Positions 9,683 through 55,896 of a stretch of 64,000 bases of DNA are shown here, piece after piece. A program made the position numbers and the translations under genes. How positions within the stretch are numbered: the first letter of the stretch is position 1; each line of letters begins with the position of its first letter. Under the pieces are notes generated by a model. It was not told where the DNA came from, made no database searches, and saw only the letters and a program-made list of their open reading frames with translations. The stretch is from the NCBI GenBank assembly GCA_965601665.1, contig OZ271833.1, positions 5,092 to 69,091 of the forward strand, in the 5' to 3' direction. Source of the stretch: Gammaproteobacteria bacterium. GTDB taxonomy: Bacteria > Pseudomonadota > Gammaproteobacteria > Eutrophobiales > Eutrophobiaceae.

Positions 9683-9904
9683 GTATTTGCCGCTCTGGAT
9701 GCTTTTCAGAGGCATTTTCGCCGGCTTCTATTGTGCTAGAATAGGGCGTAACTTCACCGGGTTACACACTGTGTCTGTAGCTCAACTGGATGACGTGCAG
9801 GATGCACGAATATCGCGAAGGCAGGACGCCGGGAGCGATGAGAGTATGCAGCGCGAAGCGCTGATAAATTCTTGTATAATGGCAGTAATGAAAACCTCTA
9901 TCGT

Positions 9905-9981
9905 GCGCCTGTAGCTCAACTGGATAGAGTATCGGGCTTCGAACCCGAGGGTTGGGGGTTCGAGTCCCTCCGGGCGCGCCA
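9905..9981 (+). tRNA. tRNA-Arg (anticodon read as UCG), 77 nt including encoded CCA
   Basis: Manual cloverleaf: acceptor GCGCCTG/CGGGCGC, D-arm GCTC..GAGT with GG in loop, anticodon stem TCGGG/CCCGA, loop C-U-UCG-A-A, T-arm GGGGG-TTCGAGT-CCCTC, CCA. The anticodon assignment should be confirmed with tRNAscan-SE. Confidence 0.8.
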
Positions 9982-10146
9982 TCCATAAAACAAGCCACCG
10001 TCAGGTGGTTTTTTTTATGGATTAGTATTGGTGGGACGAGAACGAAGTTCGACAAATCGGCAGGACAGCCGATTTGGGCAGACGCAGTCTGCACGAAGTG
10101 CGAGCTACACGGATGTAGCGAGTCAATCCCTCCGGGCGCGCCAATC
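9937..10146 (+). repeat. 210-bp direct repeat copy 1 (tRNA 3' half from the anticodon loop, plus terminator and about 160 bp downstream; ends with a second 18-nt copy of the tRNA 3' end)
   Basis: identical to 11129..11338. Confidence 0.85.
9991..10016 (+). terminator. rho-independent terminator directly after the tRNA
   Basis: hairpin CCACC-GTCA-GGTGG followed by T8. Confidence 0.7.
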
Positions 10147-10191
10147 GATTAATCAATCGACACTGACCCTATTGATTATCACAGTAAATTC

Positions 10192-10875
10192 TTACGTAAA
10201 TCTATACCGAGAGATGAGACTAAGTAGTGCGGAGAAAAAAAATATTAAAGATGATGGCAAAGGAACGGGTGATACTTCTATACGCATTGCTAATTCAGTA
10301 GCTAGCCCAGAATTGATAGTCCATTCTTCGCCAACAAACCTTTGAGCTATATACTCATCACCACAAGTAGTACCACAGCTATAAGCTCTAAAGTCTTCTT
10401 GAGCAATACGCCAACTACTAAAACCATCGATGGTTTTATTTTCAGCGATGATCCAATATTTTTCGTTTTCATTTAGTAGTGTCGTGTTTGTCCAATGAAA
10501 TTCGTACAAGGGCCAAGGGAATATTTGTTCTATTGTTGTTGGAGAAGAAATTTCTAAAATCGAACCTGGACTATTGTTATTATCATTCCATATCGACAGC
10601 TCAATTTCACTTTCATTTAAAAAACTACTCTCTGTGAAAGGCGCAATGATCTTGTCTAAATAGCCAGAAGCGGTTGGTATAAATTGCATGCCTGCTTGAA
10701 ATGGAGATGCATTTTCGCGAAACCACTCTGTGCCAGGGCCTGCAACAGCAAAGCCTCCGCGTACAGGGTTCGGAATAGTTGTCATAGTATTATCAAACAC
10801 TACCAAAGCTGCATCTGCTTTGGACGAAAAAAGCAATAAGATTAAAAGAAACTTAAAGCTGTCTTTCGCTTTCAT
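10192..10875 (-). CDS. secreted protein with PEP-CTERM-like (VPLP-type) C-terminal sorting signal
   Basis: signal peptide; C-terminus PVPLPSSLIFFFSALLSLISRYRFT has a proline motif, a TM helix and a basic tail; AT-rich cassette between tRNA-half repeats. Confidence 0.5.
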   Translation of the reverse strand: MKAKDSFKFLLILLLFSSKADAALVVFDNTMTTIPNPVRGGFAVAGPGTEWFRENASPFQAGMQFIPTASGYLDKIIAPFTESSFLNESEIELSIWNDNNNSPGSILEISSPTTIEQIFPWPLYEFHWTNTTLLNENEKYWIIAENKTIDGFSSWRIAQEDFRAYSCGTTCGDEYIAQRFVGEEWTINSGLATELAMRIEVSPVPLPSSLIFFFSALLSLISRYRFT

Positions 10876-11128
10876 GACTTGAGCATTAATCTCATATAGA
10901 TATAAAAGATAAGCATAATCTAGCTGCGTGTCATAATTGTTACAAACTGAATTTTAATAACGCTAGAGTCGATGATTTCATGCTTATACTATTATCCGCT
11001 TCTGGCCGATTTTTGACAAAAACTATGCAGCTAGATTGTGACTTATTTAGGCTTACTGTAGCTTTTCTTATAATATTGCGAGCGTTGCAAGTAGTTGAAA
11101 GTAATAAGATTGACTAATATTAGTTCCC

Positions 11129-11338
11129 CTTCGAACCCGAGGGTTGGGGGTTCGAGTCCCTCCGGGCGCGCCATCCATAAAACAAGCCACCGTCAGGTGG
11201 TTTTTTTTATGGATTAGTATTGGTGGGACGAGAACGAAGTTCGACAAATCGGCAGGACAGCCGATTTGGGCAGACGCAGTCTGCACGAAGTGCGAGCTAC
11301 ACGGATGTAGCGAGTCAATCCCTCCGGGCGCGCCAATC
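11129..11338 (+). repeat. 210-bp direct repeat copy 2 (tRNA-Arg 3' half plus downstream block); att-like
   Basis: identical to 9937..10146; preceded by the conserved arm (about 11076..11128). Confidence 0.85.
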
Positions 11339-11512
11339 ATACCAAAAGTTTAATGTAGTCTTATCCACTTATCGTCAATGACATGGTGGTTTGGCTGAGT
11401 TTCGTCCCGTGTTACTAGCACGGGGCATCTTGGTGCTCTCAATCGCTCGTATCCTCGCTCTGAATCGCACTAGATGCATACGAGAAATAAACATAAAAAA
11501 CAGTATTATTGA

Positions 11513-12100
11513 TTAAGGCTTTACAATTAAATGACAAAATAATGAAACTCCATCATATATTCTTTCAACTACTATTTGTTTAGATAAGGCAGATTGATCT
11601 GGTATTAATGAATCTGGATCATAAATAAAGAAAATCAGATTTCTACATGTAGGGTTATGCCTATAAGTTTCAATATCATCATGAAGTTCTTTTGTTATAT
11701 TTTTTCCATGGGAAGCATCTCTTATATATTTTACTTCAATAATAGTTTTTGCAGATGGGCTAATGAAATCTTTTATGGTGAATCTATTTGCAACTTTATC
11801 GGTAGGATTTTCTGGTGTTAGATCAAGTACCCAAGGCCTGAGCATTATATACAAAGCGTCTTGCACTGCTGCTTCAGAATCAAGTGTAAGTACTGTTTTT
11901 GTACTCCTGCGAGTATTCAAATACCGTACAACTTCTTGAAATTGTTCAAGCGCTGCAATAATTTGTGAAGTCTTTACAGTTCCAGCTTCTTCAGCATTGG
12001 GTTCAGATGAATGCTTTTTTGACAGTGTTGAAACAGCATTAGCTAATGCTGGTAAAGTTGATATATCAATCATCATTATTGCCTGAAACATCTCTGCCAA
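11513..12100 (-). CDS. hypothetical protein with a candidate PD-(D/E)xK nuclease motif
   Basis: 195 aa; D(FISPSAKTII)EVK fits D-x10-E-x-K; overlaps the upstream gene by 35 nt (operon); AT-rich cassette. Confidence 0.4.
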   Translation of the reverse strand: MAEMFQAIMMIDISTLPALANAVSTLSKKHSSEPNAEEAGTVKTSQIIAALEQFQEVVRYLNTRRSTKTVLTLDSEAAVQDALYIMLRPWVLDLTPENPTDKVANRFTIKDFISPSAKTIIEVKYIRDASHGKNITKELHDDIETYRHNPTCRNLIFFIYDPDSLIPDQSALSKQIVVERIYDGVSLFCHLIVKP

Positions 12101-12752
12101 AAATATAGCGAGCTATATCTTCAAAAATATATTCATAATCTCTTCTGCTTTTGTTTTCAGGTAAATGAATATGTAAATCAATATGAAACTGCGGACTATT
12201 GTCTTGACCAGGTGGATTATTTAAACCTGTTGCTCCAGAGTTTTGAGTACTAGAGGAGTTTACAGGTGCTATGCTTGCTCCAAAATCAGCATAATCACAT
12301 ATAGCTTTGAAAGTAGATATTTGATATTGAATAGCTCTGTCGCTACCACCTGAATGAACATTAAAATAATTTTTTAACGTATCATCAGACTCTCTATGAG
12401 GTTCATGTGAATTCTCAAAAATCGGTGCCCAGCAATTTTTTATTCCTTGAGCTAATATGCCTGGCCCAGATTCTGGCATCATAAACTGCTTATATTGATC
12501 TGTAGGTTCACCAGTTGAAGTTAATAAACCAACATTTTTGATAACTCGAAGTATTGTTGCATCGTTTGAATTTCTTAAACCCCATGACTTCAATGTCTCT
12601 CCTGTGATTTTGGTGGGTTTAGGTTTGGTTGGTACTAACTCTAAAAACCTTCTCAATGAGTTTGGGACGGTTGTATATGGAAATTTCGGGGTTGATATGC
12701 TTTCAGAACTTTTACTCCTTGTTTTCTTTTTAGCTACTTTTTTCTTTGCCAT
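12066..12752 (-). CDS. hypothetical protein with Lys-rich N-terminus (MAKKKVAKKKTRSK), partner of the nuclease-like gene
   Basis: 228-aa ORF, no recognisable domain; co-oriented and overlapping with 11513..12100. Confidence 0.4.
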   Translation of the reverse strand: MAKKKVAKKKTRSKSSESISTPKFPYTTVPNSLRRFLELVPTKPKPTKITGETLKSWGLRNSNDATILRVIKNVGLLTSTGEPTDQYKQFMMPESGPGILAQGIKNCWAPIFENSHEPHRESDDTLKNYFNVHSGGSDRAIQYQISTFKAICDYADFGASIAPVNSSSTQNSGATGLNNPPGQDNSPQFHIDLHIHLPENKSRRDYEYIFEDIARYIFGRDVSGNNDD

Positions 12753-12972
12753 ATCAATTCTCCATATCCATATTTATTTATGTTTCAAACGTATAGTGAA
12801 AGTATAACTAATAATAATTGTATGTCTTTAACAGATTTAATTTAACAAATTTGAGCGCTGCAATATGTTTTTAGAAAATGATTGTGAAAATTTCCTACAA
12901 AATTTTAACCAAAAGACGATGATTTGTATTTGTTACAAATAAGTTACATTAATATATGACCTAATCTGATCG

Positions 12973-13272
12973 TTATAACACCTTTTCAAATACCATTGTG
13001 GCTTGGATTTTATCTCCACCCAAAAATCCCTTTGAACCTGATGAAGTAGTCGAAATAGTATGTAATCTATATCCTTGAGCTACCTGCTTATTTATCGTCG
13101 ATTGTAAATTAGTGAGGCTGGTGCCTCCGGAGCCTGTTCCGACTAATTTTTCTGTCAAAACAACTTGTATGACTATATACATATCTCCTTTTTTTCCCTG
13201 TGCGGCAATCGCGTCTGCATCAAATCCAAATCCTGCCATTGTTATCTCCTGATTAATAATAAAATCTGCCAA
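12973..13272 (-). CDS. small hypothetical protein (99 aa)
   Basis: ORF in AT-rich cassette 2; no recognisable domain. Confidence 0.35.
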   Translation of the reverse strand: MADFIINQEITMAGFGFDADAIAAQGKKGDMYIVIQVVLTEKLVGTGSGGTSLTNLQSTINKQVAQGYRLHTISTTSSGSKGFLGGDKIQATMVFEKVL

Positions 13273-13395
13273 CGATAGTATTGTAGCTATTGTGCGTTTT
13301 AATAATACTTATTGTGACTTATTGTAGCTACAGTTGTACGAGTGCGAGCGTTGCAAGTCATTGAAATGTAATTAGATTGGATTTGCCGGGTTCCT

Positions 13396-13440
13396 CTTCG
13401 AACCCGAGGGTTGGGGGTTCGAGTCCCTCCGGGCGCGCCA
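13396..13440 (+). repeat. 45-nt direct repeat copy 3 of the tRNA-Arg 3' half (anticodon loop to CCA)
   Basis: cttcgaacccgagggttgggggttcgagtccctccgggcgcgcca identical to 9937..9981; preceded by the conserved arm (about 13343..13395); followed by its own hairpin aagccacc-ttgc-ggtggctt. Confidence 0.85.
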
Positions 13441-13492
13441 TAATTAACAAAGCCACCTTGCGGTGGCTTCGTTGTTTTACAAATTTAGTTCT

Positions 13493-14176
13493 CTAGAACC
13501 GATAACCAATTATTCCCATGGCTCTGAAAGTTTCAAATTCAGCTTCAGTGCCGGAAAAGTTAGCATCATACCTAAGGTAGGATGCATTAACTCCTATATA
13601 AGCATTCGCAGTAATGTCATAATCAAAGCCACCCATAAACTGGAATGCGAAATCTGAATCATCATCACTACCGCTTACACTAATGCCTGCAATATTTGCA
13701 CTAAGATCAACATCAGTAAATGCATAGCCAACACCGGCACCAATATAAGGATGAAAGCTGCTGTTGTTAAATGACGAGCCATCATTATCACGCCATAAAA
13801 AATTAACAGTGAACAAATCTGTTTCATACTCAATTTCAAGAGGAACCAATAAAACTAAATTAGCAAAAGTGTCACCAGGTGACCCTGAATAGTCAGCGTC
13901 AGTAATCCGATTATATTGGATGCCGAATGTAAATTCCGGATAAAGTGACCAGGCTTTATCGACATATAACCCGACGCCATATGAAAGTCCTTCATCTGTG
14001 TCAAGATCATCCGAAATACCAGCTTCGGAAAGCTCTGGGTCACCGGTAGCAATACCAAATTGACCCTCAAGTCTTGTCTCATATGCTGCAGTATTAAATG
14101 CAACAAGCGTTAGTATCGAACTTAACAACAAATATTTTTTTAATTTCACAACCCATCCCCTTTGAAAAAAAAACAA
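13493..14176 (-). CDS. OmpW-like 8-strand outer-membrane beta-barrel protein
   Basis: signal peptide (KLKKYLLLSSILTLVAFNTAA), alternating amphipathic strands, PYIGAGVGY and C-terminal GYRF as in OmpW. Confidence 0.55.
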   Translation of the reverse strand: MFFFQRGWVVKLKKYLLLSSILTLVAFNTAAYETRLEGQFGIATGDPELSEAGISDDLDTDEGLSYGVGLYVDKAWSLYPEFTFGIQYNRITDADYSGSPGDTFANLVLLVPLEIEYETDLFTVNFLWRDNDGSSFNNSSFHPYIGAGVGYAFTDVDLSANIAGISVSGSDDDSDFAFQFMGGFDYDITANAYIGVNASYLRYDANFSGTEAEFETFRAMGIIGYRF

Positions 14177-14329
14177 TACGGTAACACTCAGTGAAGGTAG
14201 CGTTGAATAGTAAGTAAGTACTATAAGAATATATTCAGGATATTTTCCTGTAGGACATGCTTACGAATTTGTTGCTGAGCGCGCCTTACAAATCATTGAA
14301 ATATAATAAGATTGAATTATCAGCCTTCT

Positions 14330-14448
14330 CTTCGAAACCGAGGGTTGGGGGTTCGACAACTTTGCAGGAGCAAAAGTTGAACCGCAGAAGGCGGGCCCCG
14401 TAGGGGTGGGGCACAAGGATGTGCCGAATAATACCTCCGGACGCGCCA
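14330..14448 (+). repeat. degenerate copy 4 of the tRNA-Arg 3' half, carrying a 76-nt structured insertion in the T-loop region
   Basis: cttcgaaAccgagggttgggggttcga + insertion (14358..14433) + cctccggAcgcgcca; preceded by the conserved arm (about 14276..14329). Confidence 0.75.
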
Positions 14449-14547
14449 TCTAGTTTTCTGGATATATAATTCCGTCAACTCATGTTTTTACATGGAACAG
14501 GAACCAACTGGCTTGATCTGGTTATATCCGGATTTGGAGAGGCGAAT

Positions 14548-14919
14548 ATGCGGTATTTATTGCTCATAATAGTTTTAACCCTTTCTTCTAATTTGAAGGC
14601 AGACTGGGTCGAGTATTCCACCAGGGTAAATGGTGATGTCTATTACTTTGATGATGCACGTGTACAAAAGAACGGTAGTCGGGTCACCGTTTGGAATAGG
14701 GCCCGGTACAAGACTTCGGTAATGGCCGCGTTCAGTTATCAAAGCCAGATTGTTATCGATTGTGCTACCTATTCAGTGGCAACAACAGAAAGTACCTTTT
14801 ACCTGGATAAGGATTGGCTCAAGCCTGCCATGGCGACTGACAGTACCGAGAAGCCCTGGGTAAGTATAGATGCTGAATCAGCAATCGGAGAACTGGCCAA
14901 CAAACTCTGCAAGGAATAG
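14548..14919 (+). CDS. small secreted protein of unknown function
   Basis: signal peptide MRYLLLIIVLTLSSNLKA; ORF track start 14482 probably too early. Confidence 0.4.
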   Translation: MRYLLLIIVLTLSSNLKADWVEYSTRVNGDVYYFDDARVQKNGSRVTVWNRARYKTSVMAAFSYQSQIVIDCATYSVATTESTFYLDKDWLKPAMATDSTEKPWVSIDAESAIGELANKLCKE

Positions 14920-16720: not shown

Positions 16721-16913
16721 TGTCGGCCTTCCCTGATAAATAGAATTATTTACAAGTGTAGCTGGGACGTAATCTACAATAATGAGTAAGGTATTGAGTT
16801 AGGATTTATTCCTGAAATTGAGCCAATATGTGAACAGAATGTGAAAAGGAGAACTATTACCGTAACATAAAATTAGACTAACTTATTCGCGTCACAGCGG
16901 ACATGCCATCCAA

Positions 16914-17156
16914 TTGATGATCTGGACAAAGCTGGTCTCCTCCCCGTTATCTGAGGTCAAGAATAATAACGTTTACGTACGTGAATCGGCTAATATCAAC
17001 CTTGATAACGCCGTGCAGACCGATGAATCCGGTAGACGCCTGTTAGTCACTATTATTGAACCTGGCGACAACATTTATGGCTTCACAATTGATAAGTTTG
17101 AAGAATATTCTCGACAGTACATAATGAACAAGGCCGGCATATGCCGGCCTTGTTAA
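16914..17156 (+). CDS. hypothetical small protein
   Basis: 80-aa ORF followed by a palindromic hairpin (17128..17154); no domain recognised. Confidence 0.25.
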   Translation: MMIWTKLVSSPLSEVKNNNVYVRESANINLDNAVQTDESGRRLLVTIIEPGDNIYGFTIDKFEEYSRQYIMNKAGICRPC

Positions 17157-17722: not shown

Positions 17723-18008
17723 ACAACACTCCGTTAATAAATAAACAAAAAGGAGCGGCGAAATTAAGAGTATTTATGTCAAAAAGATGTGTAAGAAATG
17801 GCTAAATTAAATCAAATTATTGATACCTGGATTGTAGTCTTTGTGTCACATTTCCTGTTAATGTTAACTTATTGATAATTATGAAGAATAATAATCTTTG
17901 AGCGTAATATATCAGCGCTTTATTTAGCGCCCTTTTTTACAATGATCTGAACAACGGAACCAACCATTTTAAAGTGACACCCAGTAGCTGCTTTATTACA
18001 CTTACATT

Positions 18009-18365
18009 ATGGATACAGAGGGCTTGAGTGAGCATATCTGTGCTCAGCTACAAATACTGGCACCGCAGATTAATGATGCCAGCTTGCTTGTTGAAGAGTG
18101 TCTTGCCAATGCAAGAAAATATTTAACGGACGATTTCATTGTAATGCTCAGTCCTCTTGCATGGGCAAAAATTACACTTACCTACCATAAACACTTTCTT
18201 GATAGTGGTGTTGACATCAGTATTGCAGAAATTATCACCGCTGTACTTCGCGATTCAATAACTACTAATAGAATGGATATGGTGACTTTATCTTTGGCAC
18301 AGCAGGCGCAGGAGATGAACAGGTCTGATGCTTCTACGCCCTCGCTTAAAGTCGTCAAAGAATAG
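18009..18365 (+). CDS. hypothetical protein
   Basis: 118-aa ORF, no recognisable domain. Confidence 0.35.
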   Translation: MDTEGLSEHICAQLQILAPQINDASLLVEECLANARKYLTDDFIVMLSPLAWAKITLTYHKHFLDSGVDISIAEIITAVLRDSITTNRMDMVTLSLAQQAQEMNRSDASTPSLKVVKE

Positions 18366-18366
18366 T

Positions 18367-19416
18367 TTAATTTAACCCATCCATTATTCCATTCTTGTTC
18401 GCATTGATTGTTTTAAGATAGTCAGCGTAGCCCAGAAATTCCTTTTCGTAACACTCCAGTGCCTTACGCAAATCATTGTCAGCAATTATCGGAGATAATG
18501 CCCGCGCCAGCACGTTACAGTTCCATAAGCCGATAACAGGTTGCTCTCCAAACGCGTAGCGTCCTTTCTCATCATTACTGCTGCTCACAAAGTTCGTATC
18601 GTGGTTCTCGGTAAAACTTGCTTCACCAAGATCCAGCGTGATCCCCAGTATGGATTGATTATCGGTATTCATCATGCCATGCGTGAAGCCAACATGTTGC
18701 CAATGAGCAATCAAACGCGCGGTACGTTTAACAACCTCTGAAAAAAAGTCTGCGTACTTATTTTTTTCATCATGAATGCAGTCTGAATAATAATAGTGGA
18801 TGACATAATCTGTTAATTGTGTGAGTGCCGCAGTATTTCGTTGAAAATAATAATTCTCAAAAGTACCAAAACGAATGAAGCCTGGGGCGACACGCGTAAT
18901 GATGGCCGCAGGCTCAAATTGACCTCTATAAACCTGTTCCTTGCCCGATATAACGCACAGGCTATGTGTACATGGCACGCCGAGCTTGATTAATTGCTGG
19001 CTTAAGTCGAATTCTCGTAAGCAACCGCTCAAGCTGGCACGGCCGTCAAAGTCTCGTGAGTAAGGTGTTTGTCCTGCGCCTTTCAGATGACATTCCCAAA
19101 AACCGGTTTCATTTTCTGTATCGAATAACAATATGGCCCGGCCATCGCCGAGCATCGGGTTGAAGTTGCCTAGCTGATGGCCTGCATAATCCTGTGCTAA
19201 TGGTTTGCTATCAGGAATTATCTTGTTCCCGCTAAACACCTGTAGAAATAGATCTGACTCGGTTTCATCTGCCGATAACCCTAACAATGTTGCCGTAATT
19301 GAATTAACAGTTTCGAACTCAGGATCGGTTAAACCCTGTGGCTGGAATTCGCAGTAGAAATGGTCGCCGAGTGAATAAAAGCGGTTTTTTACCGTGAGGT
19401 CTGTGAAAGAACCCAT
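18367..19416 (-). CDS. SelO/YdiU-family protein adenylyltransferase homologue, C-terminally short (349 aa against about 480)
   Basis: PLAQDYAGHQLGNFNPMLGDGRAILL and GFTHGMMNTDNQSILGITLD match SelO kinase-like core; ends near the position equivalent to about aa 365 of E. coli YdiU. Confidence 0.65.
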   Translation of the reverse strand: MGSFTDLTVKNRFYSLGDHFYCEFQPQGLTDPEFETVNSITATLLGLSADETESDLFLQVFSGNKIIPDSKPLAQDYAGHQLGNFNPMLGDGRAILLFDTENETGFWECHLKGAGQTPYSRDFDGRASLSGCLREFDLSQQLIKLGVPCTHSLCVISGKEQVYRGQFEPAAIITRVAPGFIRFGTFENYYFQRNTAALTQLTDYVIHYYYSDCIHDEKNKYADFFSEVVKRTARLIAHWQHVGFTHGMMNTDNQSILGITLDLGEASFTENHDTNFVSSSNDEKGRYAFGEQPVIGLWNCNVLARALSPIIADNDLRKALECYEKEFLGYADYLKTINANKNGIMDGLN

Positions 19417-19451
19417 ATGAATTACATCTGCGTCCTGCGAAAGCTATATAA

Positions 19452-19482
19452 AAAAAGGCCCCGGATTACCGGGGCCTTTTCC
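19452..19482. terminator. bidirectional intrinsic terminator
   Basis: GGCCCCGG-atta-CCGGGGCC flanked by A-run and T-run, between convergent SelO-like and aldehyde dehydrogenase genes. Confidence 0.7.
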
Positions 19483-19496
19483 AGAGTGTTGAAGAC

Positions 19497-21017
19497 CTAG
19501 AAGAAACCCAGTGGATTGATGTCGTAACTTACCAACATATTTTTTGTCTGTTGGTAATGGTCAAGCATCATCTTGTGTGTTTCACGACCAACGCCAGACT
19601 TTTTGTAACCACCAAAGGCAGCGTGAGCTGGATACTGGTGATAGCAGTTCATCCAAACTCGACCAGCCTGAATACCCCTGCCCATACGATAGGCCCGGTT
19701 GGTATCACGGGTCCAGACGCCGGCACCAAGACCAAACTCGGTGTCATTGGCGATAGCCAGTGCTTCTGCCTCGTCCTTGAACGTCGTTACTGAAACGACA
19801 GGTCCGAAGATTTCTTCCTGGAAAACGCGCATCTTGTTGTTGCCTTTAAGGAGCGTCGGCTTGATATAAAACCCGTCACATTGTGCACCTTCCAGAGATT
19901 CAGCTTCACCGCCTACCAGTACCTGCGCACCTTCGTCTCGGCCGATCTTGATATAGTTGAGGATCTGGTCGAATTGTTCCTGGGAGGCCTGTGCGCCTAC
20001 CATGACATCGGTATCAAGCGGGTTACCCCGTTTGATATCGCCAATGCGTTTTACAACCAGCTCGATGAACTGTTCGTAGATTGATTCCTGCACCAGCATA
20101 CGTGATGGGCACGTGCACACTTCGCCCTGGTTAAAGAAAGCGAGTACTGCGCCCTCTACAGCCTTACTGACGAAATCGTCTTCCTGGTCCATGATATCTT
20201 CAAAGAATACGTTCGGTGATTTACCACCCAGCTCCACGGTAGAAGGAATGATATTGTCAGCAGCATATTTCATGATCATGGAGCCTACCGGCGTAGAGCC
20301 GGTGAAAGCGATCTTGCTGATACGCGTACTCGTAGCCAGCGCCTTACCTGCCTCAGCACCAAAACCGTTTACAATATTCAGCACACCTTTTGGTAACAGG
20401 TCACTGATCAATTCGGCAAGAACCAGAATTGATGCCGGGGTTTGTTCTGCCGGTTTCATGATAATGCAGTTGCCTGCTGCAAGCGCGGGCGCCAGCTTCC
20501 ACGCTGCCATCAATAGTGGAAAGTTCCAGGGAATGATTTGACCTACGACGCCCAACGGTTCATGAAAGTGATAGGCAACCGTATTTTCATCAATTTCACT
20601 TAGGGAGCCTTCCTGTGACCTTAAGCATCCTGCGAAATAGCGGAAGTGGTCTGCAGACAGCGGCACATCGGCGTTGAGTGTTTCTCGAATTGCCTTCCCG
20701 TTGTCCCATGTTTCGGCGACAGCCAGCTTTTCCAGGTTTTCATCGATTCGGTCAGCAATTTTCAACAGTATATTTGAACGTGCTGCAGGTGAGGTACTCG
20801 CCCATTCGTCTTTCACTGCATGTGCCGCATCAAGCGCTTGTTCGATATCTTCATCGGTTGAGCGAGGTATTTTACAAAAGGCCTTGCCATTTACAGGGGA
20901 TATATTGTCAAAATATTCTCCCTTGGCAGGGGCTACCCATTCACCACCAATAAAGTTGTCATATTGCGGTTTGAAATCCACTACCGCGCCGTCTGTATTT
21001 GGATCAGAATAAATCAT
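19497..21017 (-). CDS. NAD(P)-dependent aldehyde dehydrogenase (AldB-like)
   Basis: 506 aa; ALDH family catalytic region (ELGGKSP, conserved Cys in VCTCPSR context). Confidence 0.85.
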
Positions 21018-21103
21018 GATTGCTATCCTCCTCTAATTACTCTGATAGTTATAGTTAACCGGTTTCTGGTGTCTTCAATAAACCAGAAGTGTTGCAAGGC
21101 CGA

Positions 21104-21403
21104 TTAATGTATTTTTCCGTCAGAATTTTTTATCTGCGTACAATTGAAGGCGCAACGAGCTCTCGCCTGGAGAAGTTCGTCACGCCAGATTGTTTGTGCC
21201 TGCATTACCACTACCTCAACGACCGGGTTGGCGGAAAACTCAGGATGTGTCTGTATTTGTTTCATCATATGCACCAGCGCCATGGCATGATTCACCGATG
21301 GTTCTTTGACGTAACAGGACATCAATCGTACTAGTGATGACAGAAGGGCACATAGATCTGGAAATTCGGCTGGGTCTTTATCTTTACTGAACTTATTTTG
21401 CAT
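21104..21403 (-). CDS. small Cys-containing hypothetical protein (99 aa), putatively Fur-regulated
   Basis: ORF with two Fur-box-like palindromes 45-130 bp upstream. Confidence 0.4.
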   Translation of the reverse strand: MQNKFSKDKDPAEFPDLCALLSSLVRLMSCYVKEPSVNHAMALVHMMKQIQTHPEFSANPVVEVVVMQAQTIWRDELLQARARCAFNCTQIKNSDGKIH

Positions 21404-21444
21404 ATTTACTGACGACGTCTTTTACATCGACATTCCTTATCTTA

Positions 21445-21460
21445 TTGATATTGTTATCAA
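21445..21460. promoter_or_regulatory. Fur-box-like palindrome TTGATATTGTTATCAA
   Basis: TGATA...TATCA inverted repeat resembling Fur 7-1-7 sites. Confidence 0.35.
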
Positions 21461-21521
21461 TATATTTTCTGAAACAGTTTTCAGCTTGCTCTATATTTTA
21501 ATGTACAAATATTAATATAAA

Positions 21522-21536
21522 TGATAATCGTTATCA
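21522..21536. promoter_or_regulatory. Fur box TGATAATCGTTATCA
   Basis: 14/15 match to the TGATAATnATTATCA Fur consensus. Confidence 0.5.
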
Positions 21537-21663
21537 ATATAAAGCAGTCGAAATGCAATAATTAGTTCTCTGTAGTGCCGGGAAAGAACAGCCGTAATCG
21601 GCATGATTACGGAGTTAAATGACAAAAGGATGGTTTTATTATGTCGTTGCAGTGTCTATTTCA

Positions 21664-21690
21664 AATATAAAAGATGACCGTCCCTGGTCA
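21664..21690 (-). terminator. intrinsic terminator of the heme operon (after the globin gene)
   Basis: hairpin TGACC-gtccct-GGTCA followed on the minus strand by TCTTTTATATTT. Confidence 0.55.
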
Positions 21691-55398: not shown

Positions 55399-55605
55399 AT
55401 GATAAGTGGCAAAGTGAAATGGTTTAGTGAGTCCAAAGGTTATGGATTCATCGAACCAGAGGGAGGTGGCGAAGACATATTCGTTCATTATTCGTCTATC
55501 AAGGTAGACGGCTTCAAAACCTTAAACGAGGGCCAGGCTGTTACCTATAACGCAGAGAAAGGTCCGAAGGGTATGCATGCGGTAGAGGTGGAAGTAGCAT
55601 CCTGA
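55399..55605 (+). CDS. cold-shock protein (CspA family)
   Basis: MISGKVKWFSESKGYGFIEPEGGGEDIFVHYSSI, RNP1/RNP2 motifs. Confidence 0.92.
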   Translation: MISGKVKWFSESKGYGFIEPEGGGEDIFVHYSSIKVDGFKTLNEGQAVTYNAEKGPKGMHAVEVEVAS

Positions 55606-55623: not shown

Positions 55624-55651
55624 AAAAAACCCTGCCATGCAGGGTTTTTTT
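55624..55651 (+). terminator. intrinsic terminator after csp
   Basis: CCCTG-ccatg-CAGGG followed by T7. Confidence 0.75.
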
Positions 55652-55896
55652 ATGTCCAGGGATGGACTGTATATCGCGAGAGGACAGGAAGTCCGGAGCG
55701 ATGAATGTACATGATTGTAATGGTCGGTAATAGCTCCTGCATTACCGACATTCCCGCCATCCATGGCGGTCATATGCCGGTTTTGCACAACTGCATGGAT
55801 GCAGTTGGTAGAACGACACAGGATTCAAAGCCGAGGAACAAAAAACCGGCGAATGTCCATTGCAGCAAGCGATCAATTTCCAGGGATATGGATTGC

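Follow-up and report, generated by a model that had tools for sequence, protein, structure and literature searches.

Gene cassettes without integrase and small non-coding units at a tRNA-Arg gene of a gammaproteobacterium: a probable case of serial integration

A tRNA gene, its partial copies and three cassettes

We analysed a 64-kb stretch of a gammaproteobacterial genome (contig OZ271833.1; hereafter the window, to whose positions all coordinates refer) in which a tRNA gene is followed by partial copies of itself that delimit three small gene cassettes. The gene, tRNA-Arg(TCG), is the only tRNA that ARAGORN detected in the window (9905-9981, + strand; Rfam score 66.4 bits), and Rfam models run over all 64 kb at gathering and at permissive thresholds revealed no RNA family besides tRNA. 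Its last 45 nucleotides (nt; 9937-9981), from the first anticodon-loop base through CCA, form what we call the core. Together with its downstream copies (Table 1), the gene displays a hallmark of genomic islands, namely an intact tRNA gene and, at the distal boundary, a direct repeat formed by a displaced 3' fragment of it. A preliminary description of this DNA had reported exact 45-nt copies and a 210-bp repeat, and alignment confirmed both: copies 2 and 3 match at 45/45 positions, and the 210 nt at 9937-10146 are 100% identical to 11129-11338. The 3'-terminal 15-mer of the tRNA occurs six times with at most one mismatch, whereas shuffled sequences yield an expectation of 0.95 at up to three mismatches. 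The repeats break the tRNA at different points: the 45-mer starts at the first anticodon-loop base, a 17-mer starts in the T-loop and a 21-mer ends in the D-loop.

Behind each full core copy (copies 1-3) stands a terminator of the native tRNA type (AAGCCACC-loop-GGTGG(C/T)TT), so that each module restores a complete tRNA 3' half together with its terminator. Next to the intact tRNA, this terminator (9982-10022) is the first part of a 165-nt post-tRNA block, T165, which also contains GTTCGA with hairpins (10047-10126) and a repeat of the tRNA 3' end (10127-10143). The nested repeat had been described as a copy of the final 18 nt; it is present, but with a length of 17 nt (17/17). Similarly, core copy 4 had been recorded as plainly degenerate. 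The copy exists, but its divergence is not random: two tRNA pieces (14330-14356, 26/27; 14434-14448, 14/15) are separated at a T-loop breakpoint by a 77-nt hairpin module (14357-14433), and breakpoint and insert are homologous to the block at 10047-10143. Because the junction GTTCGA|CAA, with the hairpins and tRNA 3' end that follow, is the same as in the unit occupying the T-loop position behind the intact tRNA (see below), the simplest reading is that copy 4 represents a core plus a T165-type block from which the stretch between the tRNA GTTCGA and the block-internal GTTCGA has been deleted.

Each downstream core copy (2-4) is preceded by a conserved arm. Its existence had been noted before at a length of about 50 nt; the conserved stretch in fact spans ~90 nt and starts with a tandem 10-nt repeat. 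This repeat is followed by GCT, ~20 variable bases, GAGCGTTGCAAGT, TTGAAA-(1-2 nt)-TAAT-N-AGATTG, a 16-17-nt spacer and the core, with the arm consensus ACTTAYTGTR x2 ... GCGTTGCAAGT ... TTGAAA.TAAT.AGATTG. The tandem ACTTAYTGTR x2 matches the window twice versus 0.07 expected matches, and a profile of arm plus core finds exactly three copies and none elsewhere in the window. The arm is kept across three unrelated cargoes in the window and at the same tRNA in two other species. We considered the TTGCAA of the arm as a shared -35 box and rejected the idea, as no consistent spacing to a -10 box was apparent from arm to arm (by eye) and none of the predicted promoter-like sites falls within an arm.

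The three cassettes measure 0.9-2.3 kb and carry one to three genes each. They had been characterised as AT-rich segments transcribed opposite to the tRNA, and the proposed check of GC content over the locus agreed: the segments between the repeats have 30-39% GC versus 45-50% in the flanks, and every cargo open reading frame (ORF) is on the minus strand. When the modules of two related species are included (those of L092 and of L093/L130; L-numbers are labels for comparison contigs), all seven cargo genes of the five modules are oriented towards the tRNA. AT-rich spacers of their own precede the cargo genes, and promoter-like sites are predicted before cassettes 1 and 2.

The kinds of gene first assigned to the cassettes were also borne out. 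Cassette 1 encodes a secreted protein of VPLP/PEP-CTERM type (GC 37-42%) that contains a choice-of-anchor R domain (36.4 bits with NCBIfam NF041539, for which the cut-off is 30; no Pfam match). Cassette 2 holds a two-gene nuclease-like module (GC 30-35%) and a 99-aa ORF. One protein of the overlapping pair matches DUF5343 (Pfam PF17278, 1.7e-28; PADLOC PDC-M34A, 1.1e-34), and the other has a restriction endonuclease (REase) fold of the DpnII-MboI type (Pfam PF18742, 2e-28; PADLOC Aga_Helical-REase, 1.7e-22). On the strength of these profile matches the pair is a candidate anti-phage module. Cassette 3 encodes an OmpW-like barrel. A single query made by joining the five cassette proteins end to end scored against none of 5.8 billion proteins, distant homologues probably having been crowded out; the only reading we take from this search is that the cassette proteins appear to be without close homologues on record.

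Table 1. Features of the tRNA-Arg(TCG) locus, in positional order (positions of the 64-kb window).
Feature	Position	Strand	Details
Displaced ancestral tRNA 5' end	9771-9791	+	tRNA nt 1-21, 19/21; left direct repeat of the D-loop unit
D-loop unit, interior	9792-9904	+	GGA-loop hairpins 9792-9863, then replacement promoter and leader
Intact tRNA-Arg(TCG)	9905-9981	+	last 45 nt (9937-9981) are core copy 1
Post-tRNA block T165	9982-10146	+	bidirectional terminator, spacer, GTTCGA and four hairpins, 17-nt repeat
Cassette 1 cargo, secreted protein	10192-10875	-	choice-of-anchor R domain; VPLP, transmembrane segment and basic tail, PEP-CTERM-like
Cassette 1 arm	11041-11128	+	tandem CTTATTTAGG/CTTACTGTAG, GCGAGCGTTGCAAGT, TTGAAAGTAATAAGATTG, 17-nt spacer; nhmmer E = 1e-39
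Core copy 2	11129-11173	+	45/45
Second T165 copy	11174-11338	+	100% identical to 9982-10146
Cassette 2 cargo, two overlapping genes	11513-12752	-	DUF5343/PDC-M34A-like 12066-12752; REase-fold 11513-12100
Cassette 2 99-aa ORF	12973-13272	-	Pfam matches sub-threshold only
Cassette 2 arm	13307-13395	+	tandem CTTATTGTGA/CTTATTGTAG, GCGAGCGTTGCAAGT, TTGAAATGTAATTAGATTG, spacer; nhmmer E = 1e-43
Core copy 3	13396-13440	+	45/45; native-tRNA-type terminator behind it at 13450-13469
Cassette 3 cargo, outer-membrane beta-barrel (OmpW/AcfA-like)	13493-14176	-	Pfam PF13505, 1.3e-10; NCBIfam match weak
Cassette 3 arm, most diverged	14240-14329	+	nhmmer E = 5e-26
Core copy 4, split	14330-14448	+	tRNA nt 33-59, hairpin module, tRNA 3' 15 nt

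Occupancy in relatives and two non-coding units

Relatives were found with HemN, encoded next to the tRNA, in a large protein collection (97%, 96%, 82%, 81% and 79% identical), and tRNA-Arg(TCG) adjoins hemN in every such relative with readable DNA. The GTDB species representatives proved too distant for synteny: HemN identity does not exceed 66%, and no tRNA adjoins hemN in the nearest of them. In the relative with 97% HemN identity, homology covers hemN, the tRNA and the terminator up to window position 10047, picks up again at 14581 within an Adhesin_E-like gene and from there extends over GSDH, cytochrome c and fasciclin. The break at 10047-14581 was seen against L093, L128 and L130; the last of these (GCA_029976205.1) holds hemN, the tRNA, a GAF-domain gene, a GGDEF-domain gene, Adhesin_E and GSDH on one contig, and in the L093/L130 species an arm (CCGTTGCAAGTTGTTGAAAGATAATGA) precedes the GAF gene. 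By these alignments, the array fills a synteny break between conserved flanks that holds other genes in the relative. The comparison of relatives proposed in the preliminary description thus found close relatives without the same cassettes.

A different occupant is found in L092 (82% HemN identity), where the tRNA is followed by a T165 homologue, one minus-strand gene of the glyoxalase/VOC family, an arm with its tandem repeat (ACTTACTGTA/ACTTATTGTAGC ... AGCGTTACAAGTTATTG) and a degenerate tRNA 3' half (TTTCGAAC..ATGGTTCGAGTTCCTCGG). This glyoxalase module is present in all sampled L092-type contigs that reach the downstream side of the tRNA (L092, L131-L136 and L138), with 98.5-99% identity in six contigs and 96% in L133. 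The copies follow an age gradient with distance from the tRNA, copies 2 and 3 being exact and copy 4 and its arm the most diverged; the distal core of L092 is likewise degenerate.

Variation extends over the whole 10-21.7-kb stretch downstream of the tRNA. A gene for a 683-aa chemoreceptor of the methyl-accepting chemotaxis protein type lies between cytochrome c and fasciclin in L127, L128 and L130 and is missing from the window (16846-16952), and ~3.9 kb between fasciclin and globin (17815-21670; ORFs of 118, 349, 506 and 99 aa) is absent from L127 and L130. Several metagenome contigs of relatives stop ~100-250 nt from tRNA-Arg (the ends of L093, L094 and L095 and the starts of L137 and L140), as expected of strain variation or repeats in short-read assemblies.

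Upstream of the tRNA, a 17-nt fragment of its 5' end had been reported at 9772-9793. A fragment is present, but it comprises tRNA nt 1-21 (Table 1) and bounds a 134-nt non-coding unit made up of hairpins, a new promoter-like stretch (TTGTATAAT at 9881-9889, by eye), a leader and a new copy of tRNA nt 1-21. Because the hemN-tRNA intergenic homology of L092, L093, L094 and L095, which aligns up to window position 9791, runs directly into the fragment, we take the fragment for the ancestral 5' end of the tRNA, displaced by 134 nt. Units at the identical D-loop breakpoint (..CTGGAT|GA) occur in L096 and L097 (HemN 81% and 79% identical) and in L133; the unit is absent from L093 and from the L092-type strains that have the T-loop unit.

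The second unit, at the T-loop position, measures 162 nt from repeat to repeat (tRNA 3' end to 10127-10143). In L133 the D-loop unit is present, with perfect 21-nt repeats 136 nt apart, and the T-loop unit is cleanly absent, CCA directly adjoining tttattatctagc; in L092, L131, L132, L134, L135, L136 and L138 the T-loop unit is present and the D-loop unit absent. The HemN of L133 falls in the 90%-identity cluster of L092, and an identical HemN (P0129) is common to L131-L140. Once both units (136-nt D-loop, 161-nt T-loop) are removed, L092 and L133 are identical save one base deleted in the distal repeat of L092. Both small units are clean presence/absence polymorphisms within the L092-type species. 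The 5' fragment, the nested repeat and the split copy 4, which had been counted among the features of the cassette series, are read from this comparison as marking two non-coding units separate from that series.

Two of the more distant relatives contain nested versions. In L096 (30-245, - strand), the first hairpin of the D-loop unit has ~50 nt of extra small hairpins nested in its loop, and a 17-nt hairpin insert (TTTATGCCCGTAGGGTG) lies inside the old 5' tRNA fragment. In L097 (1-135, - strand), tRNA nt 1-21 stand behind a promoter unit and are once more broken at the D-loop by another module. This nesting suggests repeated rounds of insertion or tandem amplification.

The hairpins themselves appear to be constrained. 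When the window is compared with the L092-type species, the T-loop unit is 90% identical and the hairpin part of the D-loop unit 94% (against L133), while the D-loop promoter and leader reach only 59%, the hemN-tRNA intergenic region 66% and third codon positions of hemN 47%. Between the T-loop unit of the window and copy 4, hand counts gave double changes at three of nine pairs in hairpin 1 and at two of six in hairpin 4; for hairpin 2, comparison of the window with L092 (also hand-counted) revealed a single change from G-C to A-T, as well as two G-T changes that pair only on the + strand. These paired substitutions among three sequences are suggestive of conserved hairpins, not statistical support for them, and folds of single sequences show a modest advantage over shuffles (z -2.0 to -2.7).

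A loop GGA is found in 5/7 perfect module hairpins on the + strand and in 0/7 on the - strand, against window backgrounds of 9.6% and 5.2%, respectively, and all module GGA are unpaired in minimum-free-energy folds; GGA density itself is unremarkable. The consensus RUACARGGAUGU obtained for CsrA by in vitro selection (SELEX; PMC7652899) is matched at 11/12 positions by GCACAAGGATGT (14411) and at 10/12 by CTACACGGATGT (10105), near-matches not being enriched window-wide (22 found versus 15 expected). With several short GGA-loop hairpins per unit on one strand, the modules resemble the Csr/Rsm sponge small RNAs (sRNAs; CsrB, RsmX/Y/Z). Unlike these, they have 2-3 GGA per unit and neither a canonical terminator nor a GacA-type box was seen, and their stems (5-9 bp) are longer than those of typical CsrA sites. 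The Rfam Csr/Rsm models gave 14.2 bits for RsmY against a threshold of 57, nothing for L096 and L097, and for rsmX 21.6 bits at 55.6 kb, where the match is on the wrong strand (thresholds 56-57); the window contains no csrA gene. We therefore propose only with low confidence that the hairpin modules might be CsrA/Rsm-type ligands; their constraint is the firmer point.

A genome-wide repeat of the REP/BIME kind (repetitive extragenic palindromes and mosaics of them) was considered for the hairpins and rejected, as within the window they occur only at the tRNA locus and in one other intergenic region. This region (55653-55895, + strand; ~240 nt, 10 GGA, several of which are located in hairpin loops) lies behind a cspA-like gene (~55399-55605) and its terminator (55627-55652). 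It contains the hairpins GTCCA-GGGA-TGGAC, ATCGC..GGAC-AGGAA-GTCC..GCGAT and CAACTGCA-TGGA-TGCAGTTG, and is homologous to the D-loop unit and to a GGA-hairpin region of ~170 nt in L004, a more distant relative (E = 2e-6). The L004 region is also located behind a terminator and is homologous to the D-loop unit. The window region matches no Rfam family and may encode a Csr/Rsm-type sponge sRNA.

Serial integration and the alternatives

The preliminary description had proposed that related small elements integrated serially into a single tRNA gene and are now either decayed or mobilised in trans. Support for serial integration comes from the alternative occupancy of the locus, an arm shared across cargoes and species, the terminators behind the full cores, and a core whose extent, anticodon loop to CCA, is documented as an integrase sublocation. 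In our view, the array probably arose by serial site-specific integration of cassette-sized modules without integrase, similar to cis-mobilizable elements (CIMEs), through a recombinase acting in trans; the type of recombinase, the order of events and present-day mobility are what we infer beyond this. The tRNA-Arg(TCG) gene would then be a hotspot used at three positions by recombinases encoded elsewhere. At the anticodon-loop position, three modules would have integrated successively in the 45-nt core that runs from the anticodon loop to CCA, each newcomer pushing older modules outward and supplying a new tRNA 3' half and terminator. Each module keeps one end resembling a phage-type attachment site (attP), composed of the ~90-nt arm with its tandem 10-nt repeats, the 16-17-nt spacer and the core. 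As no module has an integrase, movement would depend on a tyrosine integrase provided in trans, as for CIMEs.

The small units would occupy the other two positions. At the D-loop, the 134-nt unit with its hairpins, new promoter and tRNA nt 1-21 would have displaced the ancestral 5' end upstream. At the T-loop, the 162-nt non-coding unit would have inserted between the tRNA 3' end and the 17-nt repeat, and because it lies between two cores it would travel with the cassettes. Excision between the tRNA core and the next core would carry the T-loop unit along as the tRNA-proximal end of the module, and re-integration would leave an identical copy of the unit beside the tRNA. Such an origin of the doubled T-loop unit would fit both the 210-bp repeat and the 90%-identical block in the other species, although the 100% identity of the T165 copies could also result from gene conversion between tandem copies.

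Several observations weigh against serial integration in trans, among them the lack of a visible recombinase. As first described for 9.9-17 kb, no integrase was found: the ORFs located at 10.2-16.7 kb are free of integrase domains, and no open frame anywhere in the window contains the tyrosine-recombinase box II motif. Integrase, excisionase and relaxase are lacking from the 64-kb window as a whole, where the check was by eye and motif only, and the remaining genes read by eye as housekeeping (nitrate/nitrite uptake and reduction, cbb3 oxidase and others). L092 has no integrase within 10 kb. An autonomous element bearing the arm, or any cognate element with an integrase, was found neither in the window and the flanks of relatives nor in viral (IMG/VR), metagenome (pattern scan), phage and plasmid collections. 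No empty site or circular junction was seen for the cassettes, and no recognisable core lies behind the arm of the L093/L130 species. Moreover, the left half-sites by the core (TTCCC, TTCCT and TTCTC) are not inverted repeats of CCCGA, as a symmetric core would lead one to expect, and the presence or absence of the small units could stem from deletion between their 17-21-nt repeats rather than from insertion.

In the individual searches, the arm plus core pattern had no matches in the viral collection and 10 in the metagenomes, all of them chance and none running into a tRNA, while with arm plus T165 as query against phages and plasmids the tRNA-derived part alone matched. The tandem arm repeat gave five chance matches in IMG/VR. 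The short arm motif AGCGTTRCAAGT.. gave 24 there, mostly chance, of which two groups lie in attachment-site (att) arms beside integrase genes: the motif AGCGTTGCAAGT.RTTGA is found in the proviruses L114 (5700-6100, - strand), near a tRNA 3' fragment, and L116 (11990-12300, + strand), near a 3' end resembling that of transfer-messenger RNA (tmRNA), each with an integrase gene adjacent. The integrase of L116 was read as P4-type from its N-terminus by eye only. The motif appears too short to establish homology with the window arm, yet would be unexpected by chance. In another IMG/VR provirus, L091 (IMGVR_UViG_3300010361_000489, 31-710), an integrase-like 3' end directly adjoins a tRNA-Arg(TCG) 3' half with the exact 35-mer of the window; this unrelated high-GC provirus is a precedent only for the core as a phage att site. 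Core-like matches in L048 proved to be an ordinary tRNA cluster and were set aside.

The absence of an integrase nearby could also be expected of a fossil array, in which the cassettes are remnants of autonomous islands or of one composite island, fixed after their mobility genes were deleted. The decay of copy 4 and its arm accords with this, as do the one-cassette state of the L092 species, identical across many samples with a degenerate distal core, and the fixed tandem islands noted in the literature (PMC3146451). However, five tiny modules in three species lack an integrase and keep the full arm, which would need five independent and similarly placed deletions. Two cores are still 45/45 and the 210-bp block is 100% identical, and the cargo differs wholly from that of the relative with 97% HemN identity, indicating recent turnover. 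We regard a fossil array as unlikely.

The same 210-bp block raises the question of whether homology alone could have driven the exchange. Arm, core, terminator and T165 (~150-300 bp) could anchor RecA-dependent gain, loss and swapping of cassettes, for example after DNA uptake or by unequal crossing-over, without any site-specific recombinase today. The perfect direct repeat on either side of cassette 1 has a length sufficient for RecA, no recombinase is encoded in cis, and the 17-21-nt repeats flanking the small units could mediate deletion. The breakpoints speak against this, as the block of identity starts exactly at the first anticodon-loop base in all copies and the small units have theirs precisely in the D-loop and the T-loop, positions that integrases are known to use as sublocations. 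The layout of the arm is that of tandem repeats of arm-type sites, and homology alone would leave the origin of the first partial tRNA copies unexplained. Homology-driven exchange is thus, in our judgement, an improbable account of the locus, more so than a fossil array, but these two are the rivals of serial integration that deserve serious consideration.

An integron-like platform that captures cassettes via folded single-stranded sites, with the tRNA as primary attachment site, might also be envisaged, since the modules are cassette-sized, co-oriented and arrayed and each has a conserved recombination end. We disfavour and in effect reject it: there is no intI-like gene, and arm plus core lack a conserved attC-like hairpin, the core-adjacent stems having 7, 4 and 3 bp. 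In addition, the cargo genes have AT-rich spacers of their own, with promoter-like sites before cassettes 1 and 2. That such a platform built this array seems very improbable.

Beyond serial integration as such, a wider scenario can be sketched, although we think it rather unlikely. The locus might be a docking platform shared within the clade by a family of att elements with few genes or none, at which a trans-acting integrase captures and shuffles cassettes and miniature elements of ~135-160 nt rewire the promoter and terminator of the tRNA and deliver conserved GGA-loop hairpin RNAs as ligands of CsrA/Rsm type, the D-loop hairpins being driven by the displaced ancestral promoter. Through such capture and shuffling, the locus would function like an integron, but one based on the att site of a tRNA.

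Relation to known systems and significance

Tandem islands at tRNA genes are well known and are normally recognised through their integrase, and CIMEs and islands are much larger than the modules of 0.9-2.3 kb and one to three genes seen here. Measured against islands made by tyrosine integrases, the locus has the displaced 3' repeat, a recognised sublocation, the synteny break and foreign composition, and lacks an integrase of its own. Measured against CIMEs, its modules are flanked by att sites (core copies, with the arm on one side) and encode no functions for recombination or transfer.

The integrase sublocations listed in a Klebsiella study (bioRxiv 10.1101/2020.11.02.365908, citing Williams 2002) include anticodon loop to CCA and the T-loop, and a novel D-loop sublocation was reported there for islands upstream of the tRNA-Arg gene arg2 (bioRxiv 10.1101/2020.11.02.365908). 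The three breakpoint classes of the window (anticodon loop to CCA, T-loop to 3' end, 5' end to D-loop) match these. In contrast to Klebsiella, all three are occupied at one gene, and the occupants at the D-loop and T-loop are non-coding units of 134-162 nt and not gene-carrying islands.

Among the tandem islands at ssrA in Dehalococcoides, 15 lack integration modules and were interpreted as CIMEs; the enzyme there is a serine recombinase acting in the T-loop of tmRNA (PMC3146451). CIMEs and these islands are thought to be moved by the integrase of a neighbour or of another element (PMC3146451). The window shares with them tandem modules bounded by tRNA or tmRNA 3'-end repeats, located downstream of the intact gene and devoid of recombinase and transfer genes of their own; unlike them, it has no integrase-bearing partner at the locus or in the searched collections. 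In the islands that tycheposons build in Prochlorococcus, older elements are displaced outward as further ones integrate at the same tRNA, partial tRNAs lie between units, the cargo serves niche adaptation or defence and degenerate remnants are common (bioRxiv 10.1101/2020.12.28.424599). Outward stacking, partial tRNA copies between units, cargo of this nature and degenerate remnants are likewise features of our locus. However, tycheposons come with an integrase and in most cases with a replication module (bioRxiv 10.1101/2020.12.28.424599), whereas here there is neither and the host belongs to the Gammaproteobacteria. Integron cassettes are similar in size and co-orientation, and they too form arrays at one fixed place in the chromosome and each have a conserved recombination end, but the window has no IntI, attI or attC, and its att sites are of double-stranded type with an arm and a tRNA-derived core.

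Thus, the general kind of locus is known, and what is distinct here is the size of the modules, the full arm in every module across species, the use of three sublocations and the absence of a detectable integrase partner. The part most worth following up is the polymorphic, non-coding, att-bounded units with their conserved hairpins. The locus indicates that one tRNA gene can gather single-gene modules and non-coding units of ~135-160 nt with att-type ends and no recombinase, which island finders that look for the integrase first would miss. With three sublocations in a 77-nt gene, filled and empty alleles within one species and exact repeats, it is a compact test system for the trans mobilisation of integrase-less DNA and for the expression of structured RNAs by elements that replace the promoter or terminator of a tRNA. 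Its cargo, a surface-anchored protein, an outer-membrane barrel and a candidate anti-phage pair, is the type of gene set that shapes interactions between phages and their hosts.

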